Below are positions 42,501-45,500 of a DNA stretch of 64,000 nt, one piece after another. Source of the DNA: Escherichia coli. Lineage in GTDB: Bacteria > Pseudomonadota > Gammaproteobacteria > Enterobacterales > Enterobacteriaceae. Within the stretch, counting starts at the first letter, position 1. Each line of letters starts with the position of its first letter. The stretch lies in NCBI RefSeq assembly GCF_045037415.1, contig NZ_CP173438.1, one strand, 5' to 3'. A program made the position numbers.

Positions 42501-45500
42501 ACCTGTCCGTTTTGTACTATGCTGCGTAGCCAAAACCGATAACATCCGCATTTACCTGGTATTCCATGATGAGTTCACGCAGCGACTGATAGAGGAAGGA
42601 AAGATGGTTAGTAAAAGCAAGGCGCATTGCCGCCGCATGCTGCAGGCATTGCAACAGACGAGAGCAGGTATTTTTGACCAGTTGGAAAACTGCCAGCATA
42701 CTTTGCCCGAGTATATCGCCATCTCATCGGAAACCAGTGCAACTCTTATTCATCGGGTTCCACCAGAGAAAAAGAAGAAATGAACAGTGAGGCGTTGTGT
42801 GGCATACAACGCCTTCTTCCATCATTCCTCGTCAGCCATGACAAAAATATAACCGCTGGCTCTTTCATTTTTCTCCTGCTTCCAGCCCCTCTCTACCTGG
42901 AAGCATCAAGGACGTGACGGCGTAAAGATAAATTGTCTCTTCACTCCCTGACAGGGGCGATTCTTTTCAAATCGCCATTTCGCCATGGCCTTCACCACTT
43001 CATCACGAAACAAATTATGAGGCTCTGAGCGGAGAAAAACGATCCGTGTCACAGTCCCATCAGCACCAATATCGAACTTAACCTCAACCAGCCCCTTGAT
43101 ATAATTTGCTGCAGCATATTCCGGATATCGTGGATACACCGTCACTAATTGCCGGGGCTCATCAGCTTTTTGCTGCGAGCATCCCACTGCCAGGACAGAT
43201 AACAGAAAAAGTAGTAAAAGGCGTCTTTTCATTTTTATTCCTACGGGTCTTATTCTGACAATATATCCTGTGTTCCAGACTGCCACATCACCACATCCTG
43301 TGCCATTATCTGACTCACATTACATACATCGCATCGGGATACAGTAGTAGCACTTTCTGTAATACAGCTTCCTGTTTCTTCCACCATCGCACCGGGATAA
43401 ACCCGCGAATCATTAACGCGGTAAAAACCCGGTGTGCATCGTTTTTAATTATTCCCGCACACTCACGCAGAAGGAATTCCCCGTCGGGCTACGGTCATGG
43501 TTAATGCGGGAATACGGCGACGATACAGCGCAGCTAAAAGGGTAATGGACGGATAGACCGGTTTATTTCATTCCACAGGATTCTGAGTGTCCCCAACTTC
43601 CTCCAATAGTCTGAGCCCACCTGTGTAGTTTTAATTTTCATCAATCCATTTAACTATCGTTTAATTGTTGTCACATAGGATTCTGCCGTTTTTAACAATG
43701 CAGGATAATAAGATGAAAAAAATGTTGTTTTCTGCCGCTCTGGCAATGCTTATTACAGGATGTGCTCAACAGACGTTTACTGTTGGAAACAAACCTACAG
43801 CAGTAACACCAAAGGAAACCATCACCCATCATTTCTTCGTTTCGGGAATTGGGCAGAAGAAAACTGTCGATGCAGCAAAAATTTGTGGTGGTGCAGAAAA
43901 TGTTGTTAAAACAGAAACCCAGCAAACATTCGTAAATGGATTGCTCGGTTTTATTACTTTAGGCATTTATACTCCGCTGGAAGCGCGTGTGTATTGCTCA
44001 CAATAATTGCATGAGTTGCCCATCGATATGGGCAGCTCTATCTGCACTGCTCATTAATATACTTCTGGGTTCCTTCCAGTTGTTTTTGCATAGTGATCAG
44101 CCTCTCTCTGAGGGTGAAATAATCCCGTTCAGCGGTGTCTGCCAGTCGGGGGGAGGCTGCATTATCCACGCCGGAGGCGGTGGTGGCTTCACGCACTGAC
44201 TGACAGACTGCTTTGATGTGCAACCGACGACGACCAGCGGCAACATCATCACGCAGAGCATCATTTTCAGCTTTCGCATCAGCTAACTCCTTCGTGTATT
44301 TTGCATCGAGCGCAGCAACATCACGCTGACGCATCTGTATGTCAGTAATTGCCGCGTTCGCCAGCGTCAGTTCTCTGGCATTTTTGTCGCGCTGGGCTTT
44401 GTAGGTAATCGCGTTATCGCGGTAATGATTAACCGCCCATGAAAGGCAGACGATGACGCAGATAACCAGAGCGGAGATAATCGCGGTTATTCTGCTCATA
44501 CCTCACTCTCTCTGAGCGTTCCGCCAGCTTCTTTGAATTTTGCAATCAGGCTGTCAGCCTTATGCTCGAACTGACCATAACCAGCGCCCGGCAGTGAAGC
44601 CCAGATATTGCTGCAACGGTCGATTGCCTGACGGATATCACCGCGATCAATCATCGGTAAAGCACCACGCTCTTTAATCTGCTGTAATGCCACTGCGTCC
44701 TGGCTTTTGGGGGAGAAGTCTTTCAAACCAAGCTGTTTACGGTAAGCATCCCACCAGCGTGAAAGAAGCTGATAACGTCCGGCGGCTGTTGATTTGAGTT
44801 TGGGGTGTAGCGTGACAAGTTTGCGAGGGTGATCGGAGTAATCAGTAAACAGTTCGCCGCCAACAATAACATCATAACCGTGGTTACGTGTCGGTTGTCG
44901 CCCGTTATCCGTTCCTTCTGACCACGCCAACATATCGAGGAAGGCTTTACGCTGAGGATTAAGATTTTGCATTTTTCACCCCTGTCAGTCGTTCCCAGAA
45001 GTACGTCAGTGCAACCGAACCCATCGCACCACTAATCCCCGCTGTCGCGAGAATCATGTAAATACTGAATCCACTTTCGATGCTGATCAGGCCACCAATA
45101 ACACCGGTGAATCCTGATACCACTATTTGAGCCAGAGCATTTATCCAACTCCACGTTGCTTTACTCTGCTTCACATCTATCAGGTAGCGGACCAGACCGC
45201 CCCAACCTGCGATGATCAGCAAAACGAGCCAGAACGCTCCGGCAAGGCTCTCTTTTTCGTGCATATGAATAGCCAATGTTTCGCCGCCGACAAAAGGCCG
45301 GGACGTTAAATGTCAGAAATCAGGCTCACGGGGTAATTTAACGACAAAGCACGGAGTTGATGCTCCCCGCAAGCCTGGAATAAAAAAGCCAGCATGTAGC
45401 TGGCAACAGAGGGTTAAGCAATATCAACTCAACAGCTGAAGACACCCTGGCTGGGGTAGGTTGGAAGGCTACTCACCGTTCAGAAACAGAAAAGCCCAAG

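Follow-up and report, generated by a model that had tools for sequence, protein, structure and literature searches.

A 64,000-nucleotide stretch of Escherichia coli DNA (NCBI RefSeq assembly GCF_045037415.1, contig NZ_CP173438.1), referred to below as the window, carries a phage 21-type lambdoid prophage integrated at icd and adjoining sitABCD. We analysed one accessory gene of this prophage, whose product joins a predicted lipoprotein signal to a TonB C-terminal domain and is called the TonB_C lipoprotein here (Table 1). The gene belongs to the late strand, on which the order is Q, holin, lysozyme, Rz/Rz1, (iss on the opposite strand), a 45-aa open reading frame (ORF), the TonB_C lipoprotein gene, two small ORFs, cos and terminase. 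It stands head-to-head with iss/bor across a 480-bp spacer that contains the 45-aa ORF. An earlier note on this DNA had described a 108-aa ORF with the lipobox LAVGC and a TonB C-terminal-like region, placed divergently beside bor, and each of these observations is borne out. Over 24 kb the window is 100% identical to the chromosome of E. coli O25b:H4-ST131.

Table 1. Positions in the window of the TonB_C lipoprotein gene, its parts and other prophage features.
Feature	Position	Strand	Remarks and basis
TonB_C lipoprotein gene	42906..43232	-	327-nt ORF, 108 codons plus stop; WP_000830178.1 'TonB family protein'; equals phage 21 CPT_21_73
Start codon ATG	43232-43230	-	Sequence
Ribosome-binding site AGGA	43239..43242	-	6 nt 5' of ATG; sequence; annotated at the equivalent place in phage 21
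Signal peptide and lipobox, codons 1-18	43179..43232	-	MKRRLLLLFLLSVLAVG, then C; direct sequence reading
Tether, residues 19-30	43143..43178	-	SQQKADEPRQLV; from lipid anchor to fold; AlphaFold2 model
TonB C-terminal domain, residues 31-104	42921..43142	-	Equals TonB 158-231; gap-free alignment, AlphaFold2, Foldseek
45-aa ORF directly upstream of the gene	43250..43387	-	Phage 21 CPT_21_72; no family match
iss/bor lipoprotein gene	43713..44006	+	Annotated increased serum survival lipoprotein Iss; divergent neighbour
Rz i-spanin gene	44038..44499	-	Embedded Rz1 o-spanin 44097..44279, a canonical Pro-rich lipoprotein
Terminase small subunit gene (nohD/Nu1)	41408..41953	-	Downstream boundary of the accessory slot
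sitABCD	16985-20434		Adjoins the tail-fibre end of the prophage
Alpha/beta hydrolase cargo gene	48124-49155	+	Prophage nin/Q region
ISEc23, IS66-family element	about 49182-51598		Prophage nin/Q region
Inverse autotransporter gene	51744-55652	-	1302 aa; prophage nin/Q region

Domain, signal and tether of the TonB_C lipoprotein

We found a single Pfam-A match in the protein, to PF03544 (TonB_C; E=9.1e-13, residues 33-99), and a score of 47.4 bits against TIGR01352 (tonB_Cterm), for which the curated cutoff is 27.1. A search against the TonB_C family was the check that the earlier note had proposed, and its match lies above the curated threshold. In a phmmer search of the PDB, the E. coli TonB chains 1U07, 1XX3, 2GSK and 2GRX were retrieved at E~1e-14, the alignment running without gaps from query residues 24-103 to TonB 151-230 at 40% identity. 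AlphaFold2 (AF2) modelled the domain with predicted local distance difference test (pLDDT) scores of 92-98. Foldseek superposed this model on TonB structures with a root-mean-square deviation (rmsd) of 0.6-1.0 Å over 72-77 columns, again at 40% identity; the best structural match was 1u07_A (0.7 Å over 77 columns), and 2grx_C and 2gsk_B matched at 0.8 and 1.0 Å. We conclude that the resemblance, as judged by profiles and models, is real homology and not chance.

The homology covers the head of TonB and no other part. Full-length TonB equivalogs (PRK10819 and NF008081-84) scored 58-69 bits against cutoffs of 265-448 and matched at profile positions ~150-240 only. The TonB_C lipoprotein has a cleavable lipoprotein signal in place of the inner-membrane anchor, and it is without the proline-rich spacer that spans the periplasm. 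Lacking both the anchor and the proline-rich rod, it cannot transduce energy.

The N-terminus reads MKRR-LLLLFLLSVLAVG-C18, with three basic residues ahead of a 12-residue hydrophobic core that leads into the lipobox L-A-V-G-C, and WP_000830178.1 satisfies the PROSITE PS51257-type lipoprotein rule. Cys18 is thus the predicted lipidated N-terminus. In lipoproteins, Asp at position +2 is the signal for inner-membrane retention (Lol avoidance). Position +2 is Ser19 here, not Asp, and the protein is therefore predicted to be Lol-sorted to the outer membrane. All 11 phage and plasmid homologues that we aligned keep the lipobox, and their +2 residue is S, A or T, never D.

Between Cys18 and the fold lie about 10-12 residues, and about 78 residues follow SQQKADEPRQLV. 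In the AF2 model the first three mature residues have pLDDT below 50 and the first 10 average 69, and mature residues 10-12 form the first strand. The long edge strand β3 comprises residues 94-104; its equivalent in TonB is the strand that binds Ton boxes. The protein finishes as FIFTPSRP, four residues beyond the domain and in a Pro-containing PSRP tail. Its end falls after TonB-equivalent residue 235, leaving no segment equivalent to TonB 236-239. Both E. coli alleles have Pro-containing tails (TPSRP and SPSAP), and the mobile-element proteins end a few residues past β3. Since the 236-239 segment is absent, the β3 edge should be permanently free in the TonB_C lipoprotein.

Aligned with real TonB domains, the mobile-element homologues are gap-free across the fold. 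The two sets share 26 positions that are both conserved and identical between them; these include the YP motif and the equivalents of TonB Y163, G186, F202, W213 and F230. Aromatic residues of TonB such as F202, W213 and F230 are functionally sensitive. Five group-wide switches set the 11 phage and plasmid homologues apart from TonB: R166Y, L170N, A196S, M201L and E203D/R. This signature is, on the alignment, the mark of a distinct but constrained function.

Distribution, gene neighbourhoods and transcription

The gene is common. Among 5426 complete E. coli genomes, 1616 carry it, with up to four copies, and it is intact in all but five of these (1611/1616). Its alleles fall into two groups, one with at least 95% nucleotide identity (1224 genomes) and one with 60-80% (392 genomes, mostly Shiga toxin-producing E. 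coli (STEC)/O157), and within each group the length is constant at 108 aa. We found the identical protein in Nissle 1917, ATCC 11775 and many other strains, and the gene is 100% identical in UTI89; WP_000830178.1 itself is recorded on at least 1000 contigs. Classical phage 21 encodes the identical protein at the equivalent position, where GenBank OL657228 labels it 'TonB C-terminal domain protein'. The domain annotation therefore already exists in RefSeq ('TonB family protein') and in the phage 21 GenBank record, and the observation is not new in itself. What is new is the architecture and setting of a known domain: a TonB head with a predicted lipid anchor, carried by mobile elements.

Between the window allele and the JLK-2012 allele, which is about 72-73% identical, the ratio of nonsynonymous to synonymous substitution rates (dN/dS) is 0.12 at a dS of ~1.5. 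A profile-free search of 1.84 billion representatives returned many short (107-133 aa) exported homologues with 33-46% identity. The low dN/dS, the conservation in distant homologues and the group signature together indicate a working gene under purifying selection. The same data bear on the reading of the gene as a decaying, functionless fragment of a captured tonB, a reading that older labels ('partial' or 'truncated' tonB-like, 'TonB fragment') would suggest. In place of the TonB N-terminus stands a dedicated lipoprotein signal, which is kept in homologues down to 38-46% identity, the length is held and the frame intact as described above, and the gene has its own ribosome-binding site; with the dN/dS, these conservation data refute such decay as far as sequence analysis allows.

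The slot occupied by the gene lies on the late strand between the lysis and the packaging genes, and it holds diverged homologues in at least four other phage lineages, which differ in their lysis and packaging modules. In the Stx1a-type phage JLK-2012 the homologue has KilA-N upstream and HNH and terminase genes downstream; a Salmonella plasmid-borne prophage and related metagenomic contigs have DUF2514 upstream and HNH and a P27-family terminase downstream. The others are a Klebsiella phage, in which the homologue again follows the lysis genes, and a phage that encodes a GH108 endolysin and Terminase_2/6.

Homologues also occur away from phages. Two lie in ordinary chromosomal neighbourhoods. 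One of 129 aa, on a plasmid-like contig with ParM/StbB (contig L015, 5348-5737), immediately precedes a DUF6694 gene and a Qat-type defence cluster (KAP NTPase, QatB, TatD). On Klebsiella/Enterobacter IncF plasmids (L018 4956-6032 and L021 3956-5032) a 43%-identical copy sits 49 nt upstream of the gene for an Exc2-family entry-exclusion lipoprotein (NF033828, 119 bits). The module further contains a cloacin immunity gene, the C-terminus of a truncated rRNase bacteriocin interrupted by an insertion sequence, and mazEF, and it looks like the remnant of a bacteriocin/exclusion module; it counts as one lineage and not as many independent events.

On sequence alone, late expression would be expected, since the gene is on the pR' late strand with no intervening terminator-like site and no sigma-70 match upstream. 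Specifically, no terminator-like site was found between Rz and the TonB_C gene on the late strand. The best sigma-70-like site of the region, at 43078-43105 (+), reads TTAACC-16-TATAAT with an upstream TG (10/12 matches); it lies antisense inside the TonB_C gene and points towards iss/bor. It could drive an antisense RNA or a distal iss transcript, and its presence makes non-directional RNA sequencing (RNA-seq) harder to read.

Such data exist for a related lysogen. Pershing et al. (PMC12803456) used RNA-seq to compare E. coli NC101 with a mutant lacking NC-SV, its icd-integrated lambdoid prophage. NC-SV shares its gene order (quuD, ompC, lysis genes, iss, TonB family protein, hypothetical) with the Nissle prophage, in which WP_000830178.1 itself is encoded; we equated the NC101 locus with the window gene by this order and by annotation. 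The cells were grown in LB medium and infected for 10 minutes with another phage, and the library kit was apparently non-directional. Among the rows listed in the S1 Data of that study, the TonB family protein (GQ584_RS06965) has the fifth largest log fold change (logFC), -9.91 (P=1.6e-11). Other prophage rows are the helix-turn-helix regulator of the immunity region (-9.76), the integrase (-8.27), J (-6.70) and iss (-6.15); no terminase, portal or capsid row is among those listed. When a gene is missing from the mutant, its logFC reflects how abundant its transcript is in the wild type, which places the TonB_C locus among the most transcribed parts of the prophage in lysogenic culture. In the rows listed, and with a library that was probably non-directional, the late structural genes are thus essentially silent in the NC101 lysogen culture while the TonB_C locus is transcribed. 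In the derivative without NC-SV, sitA-D, which are flagged as prophage genes, drop by 5.6-7.8 log2 units; sitABCD was thus removed or silenced with NC-SV, a confounder for phenotypes credited to that prophage.

Several features near the gene were considered and set aside. A longer, 126-aa ORF starting at GTG differs from the form annotated in RefSeq and phage 21. The 45-aa ORF is probably not a functional partner of the TonB_C lipoprotein, because it is absent beside the diverged allele, where the JLK-2012 context differs. The block 43390-43545 drew attention as a candidate TonB_C-specific regulatory element: it is ~95% conserved between loci whose TonB_C coding regions are 73% identical, has a folding z of -3.2 and contains a perfect 10-nt inverted repeat (43450-43459 / 43505-43514). 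It proved to be a widely shared bor-upstream region and not specific to the TonB_C gene: 432 phage records contain it, lambda, 434 and many Stx (Shiga toxin) phages outside the 15 TonB_C-matching phage records among them, and it overlaps a promoter annotated in HK629. Rfam gave no RNA family in 41900-45400.

Elsewhere in the prophage, a 117-aa ORF without a family match runs on the bor strand between the TonB_C gene and cos (42430-42783, +) and is followed by a 12-nt hairpin (42790-42814). It overlaps the late-strand small ORFs 42517-42699 and 42746-42868 (-), which are annotated in phage 21 and RefSeq and also have no family match. Between replication gene P and the nin genes, 48124-55652 holds the nin/Q-region cargo listed in Table 1. 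At 21107-23134 (-) there is an unbroken 675-aa side tail fibre ORF, which the matching RefSeq record splits into two partial pseudogenes (tail fibre N-terminal domain; head spike fibre domain).

A possible Ton-box decoy

What might a TonB head do when it is tethered to the outer membrane? TonB grips its transporters by β-augmentation, the Ton box lying parallel to β3 of the C-terminal domain (PMC11658791; 2GRX, 2GSK). We give a probability of roughly 0.4 to the reading that the TonB_C lipoprotein is an outer-membrane-tethered, non-productive competitor for the Ton box, a mechanism that we grade as plausible but unproven and as the best supported of those considered. The domain would be held on a leash of ~10 residues at the outer membrane, where Ton boxes emerge, and its free β3 edge strand would pair with the periplasm-exposed Ton-box strand of FhuA, FepA, Cir, BtuB and others; group B colicins entering the cell might offer it further Ton boxes. 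With no anchor, no proline-rich rod and no link to ExbB/ExbD, such binding would do no work, and competition with real TonB would leave fewer energised events. Cells would become less sensitive to heterologous phages that depend on TonB (T1, phi80, H8-like), to group B colicins and to catecholate microcins, and would pay for this with some loss of siderophore and B12 uptake. The carrier phage, as a LamB user, would itself escape: the C-terminus of its J matches that of LamB-using phage 21, so any exclusion would act on other phages.

Two precedents and a structural prediction favour this reading. Howard et al. 2001 (J Bacteriol 183:5885) report that a TonB periplasmic domain uncoupled from its energy source inhibits transport mediated by FecA and FhuA, and the T5 outer-membrane lipoprotein Llp inactivates FhuA from the periplasmic side (bioRxiv 10.64898/2026.03.26.714494). 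For AF2 docking, a 21-residue Gly/Ser linker was used to join the mature protein to the N-terminal peptide of FhuA, AVEPKEDTITVTAAPAPQES. In the AF2 output, which was read without coordinates, exactly DTITVT of the tethered peptide became a six-residue β-strand, with block pLDDT values of 60 and 72. A scramble of the same composition formed only a three-residue bridge, and all of its peptide residues had pLDDT below 50 (block means 33-40). This docking, of moderate confidence and run without a TonB positive control, supports competence to bind a Ton box. We also counted in favour of a decoy the homologues that lie beside exclusion and defence genes (Exc2 and cloacin immunity on IncF plasmids; Qat). 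Phage phi80 and colicin M are said to have been affected by the uncoupled TonB domain as well.

Other observations weigh against a Ton-box decoy. β-augmentation is intrinsically promiscuous. The TonB Q160 region is not conserved, and R166 has become Y and L170 N across the whole group, so that binding specificity may differ from that of TonB. A general TonB inhibitor should be costly to lysogens, and the gene is carried by siderophore-dependent extraintestinal pathogenic E. coli (ExPEC) and by Nissle 1917. Among the rows listed for NC101, Fur-regulated genes are less than 2-fold higher in the lysogen than in the cured strain and mostly not significant, with logFC values of -0.81 (ybtS), -0.76 (chuS), -0.75 (fiu), -0.54 (fyuA), -0.44 (exbB) and -0.23 (fhuA). 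The lack of strong derepression of the Fur regulon argues against a strong constitutive block of TonB in LB and leaves at most a partial or selective effect, although this read-out is weak, given the LB medium and the loss of sitABCD expression from the cured strain. As to expression, a search of 41900-44100 for sigma-70-like sites gave none on the strand of the gene, where manual inspection gave weak candidates only, and the lysogenic RNA-seq signal, from a library that was probably non-directional, may come from either strand. PADLOC-DB v2 gave no defence-model match at E<=0.01 for the protein, and full-text literature searches and a 2024 review of superinfection exclusion yielded no functional study of it.

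A somewhat doubtful alternative, which nevertheless deserves to be weighed with care, is that the fold has been kept for another partner, a periplasmic or outer-membrane protein or peptidoglycan, and that the protein is an envelope or virulence accessory in the manner of Iss/Bor with no effect on TonB-dependent transport. It would fit the vicinity of iss/bor, a slot where accessory genes expressed in lysogens are typically found, the strong transcription of the locus in a lysogen, the absence of marked Fur derepression in NC101, the non-phage chromosomal homologues and the enrichment in ExPEC-type strains with iss. The five group-specific switches, R166Y and L170N among them, would also suit a changed partner, and TonB-like domains do bind other proteins, as in the complex of the FusB domain with ferredoxin (PDB 9hi3). 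On the other hand, the β3 edge and the core are conserved with TonB, AF2 docks the Ton box and not its scramble, and the gene neighbourhoods, which vary between lineages, point to no other partner.

It is improbable that the protein poisons the TonB machine itself, by forming a heterodimer with the C-terminal domain of host TonB or by capturing the periplasmic domain of ExbD, with the captured partner trapped at the outer membrane in either case, even though the outcome would look like that of a decoy. The C-terminal domain of E. coli TonB does crystallise as a dimer (1u07, the best structural match), and the periplasmic domains of TonB and ExbD interact in vivo during the energy cycle (bioRxiv 10.1101/2022.09.26.509584). 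However, the protein is only 40% identical to host TonB and misses the equivalents of TonB 236-239, and a 10-residue tether would hold the domain at the outer membrane, far from ExbD.

A part in lysis is more improbable still. In this explanation the protein would be a lysis accessory or spanin-like factor that acts on the outer membrane or the peptidoglycan link at the end of the lytic cycle, as suggested by its match to phrog_1267 'Rz-like spanin' (E=5e-43), by a position always just 3' of the lysis cassette on the late-operon strand and by the lack of a terminator-like site between Rz and the gene. Yet a complete Rz/Rz1 pair is present at the locus, so that the spanin role is already filled there. 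The protein has a globular TonB_C fold and is not a short Pro-rich o-spanin, nor does it have the C-terminal transmembrane segment expected of a u-spanin. An opposite-strand gene intervenes between Rz and the TonB_C gene, homologues are found on conjugative plasmids and in chromosomes without lysis genes, and the locus is transcribed in a lysogen in which late structural genes were not detected among the rows listed. We rejected the identity given by the PHROG label on the grounds of the Rz/Rz1 pair, the globular fold and the missing C-terminal membrane segment. The label looks like an annotation error, as a result of which PHROG-based pipelines will name the TonB_C lipoprotein a lysis protein.

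Self-exclusion of the Cor/Llp type, in which the receptor of the phage's own kind is inactivated to block superinfection and the loss of progeny on debris, is extremely unlikely, although a small phage-encoded lipoprotein predicted at the outer membrane recalls Llp and Cor: the C-terminus of J is 99.6-100% identical to that of phage 21, whose native receptor LamB is not TonB-dependent (PMC11336670), and the protein has no sequence relation to Llp or Cor, its Pfam match being to TonB_C only. We dropped this reading on receptor grounds. The analogy with Cor and Llp that the earlier note had drawn fails at this point, because those proteins target the receptor of their own phage. Its proposal of a TonB-C mimic anchored in the envelope stands as far as it concerns a lipoprotein with a genuine TonB_C domain and predicted outer-membrane sorting, and falls as far as it implies a Cor/Llp-style action on the phage's own receptor.

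To return to the Ton-box decoy, we suggest tentatively that the receptor-binding head of TonB was captured by temperate phages and plasmids of Enterobacteriaceae, which lipid-anchored it to the outer membrane as a broad-spectrum, Ton-box-occupying decoy serving exclusion or bacteriocin resistance. TonB-dependent transporters are entry points for phages (T1, phi80, H8), group B colicins, catecholate microcins and siderophore-antibiotic conjugates, and they are essential for the virulence of ExPEC. If the suggestion is true, this would be a strategy aimed not at one receptor but at the energy-coupling interface that all TonB-dependent transporters share, and a previously undescribed prophage and plasmid means of modulating all TonB-dependent entry together. 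About 30% of sequenced E. coli, ST131, UTI89, Nissle 1917 and O157 among them, would have it; it might tune iron uptake and sensitivity to microcins and colicins in the gut, and would offer a ready-made probe of Ton-box exposure in vivo. As phage 21, Nissle 1917 and pandemic ST131 carry the gene, there may be a bearing on phage therapy, microcin-based competition and cefiderocol-type drugs. Even if there were no effect on TonB, the gene would encode a very common, conserved and predicted lysogen-expressed envelope protein beside iss.

Comparison with known systems

The closest relative by fold is the C-terminal domain of E. coli TonB itself (~150-239; 1U07 and 1XX3, 2GRX with FhuA, 2GSK with BtuB), with which the TonB_C lipoprotein has the YP motif, G186, the aromatics and the long β3 in common. 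It differs in having no transmembrane anchor and no proline-rich spacer, hence no coupling to ExbB/ExbD, and in having a lipoprotein signal, so that its predicted anchor is in the opposite membrane. FusB, HasB and TonB2 show that TonB C-terminal domains can diverge and change their partner specificity. These three are full-length inner-membrane energy transducers with Exb partners of their own, whereas the TonB_C lipoprotein has the C-terminal domain only.

Among phage outer-membrane lipoproteins, the Rz1-type o-spanins are likewise encoded near the lysis cassette. Unlike the TonB_C lipoprotein, they are short, proline-rich and non-globular, with a gene that lies within or beside that of their i-spanin partner. 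Bor/Iss is likewise the product of a prophage accessory gene and an outer-membrane lipoprotein expressed in lysogens, and it co-occurs in ExPEC prophages; however, it is not homologous to the TonB_C lipoprotein, is encoded on the opposite strand and is linked to serum survival rather than to transport.

T5 Llp and the Cor proteins of phi80 and N15 are small phage lipoproteins at the inner leaflet of the outer membrane. Working from the periplasm, they target a TonB-dependent transporter, shut out phages and colicin M, and stop ferrichrome uptake. Their specificity is for FhuA, the receptor of their own phage, and they are unrelated to the TonB_C lipoprotein in sequence and fold; its PHROG matches are phrog_1267 and a TonB-like family, neither of which is Llp or Cor. 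The carrier phage, by contrast, uses LamB (by its J match to phage 21), and for a TonB domain the expected range covers many transporters.

The constructs made by Howard, Herrmann, Stratilo & Braun are the direct functional precedent for a decoy; in them, as would be the case here, the periplasmic domain of TonB is uncoupled from its energy source. Those constructs were the host's own TonB, soluble, overproduced and made in the laboratory, whereas the TonB_C lipoprotein is natural, diverged, predicted to be lipid-anchored and carried on mobile elements.

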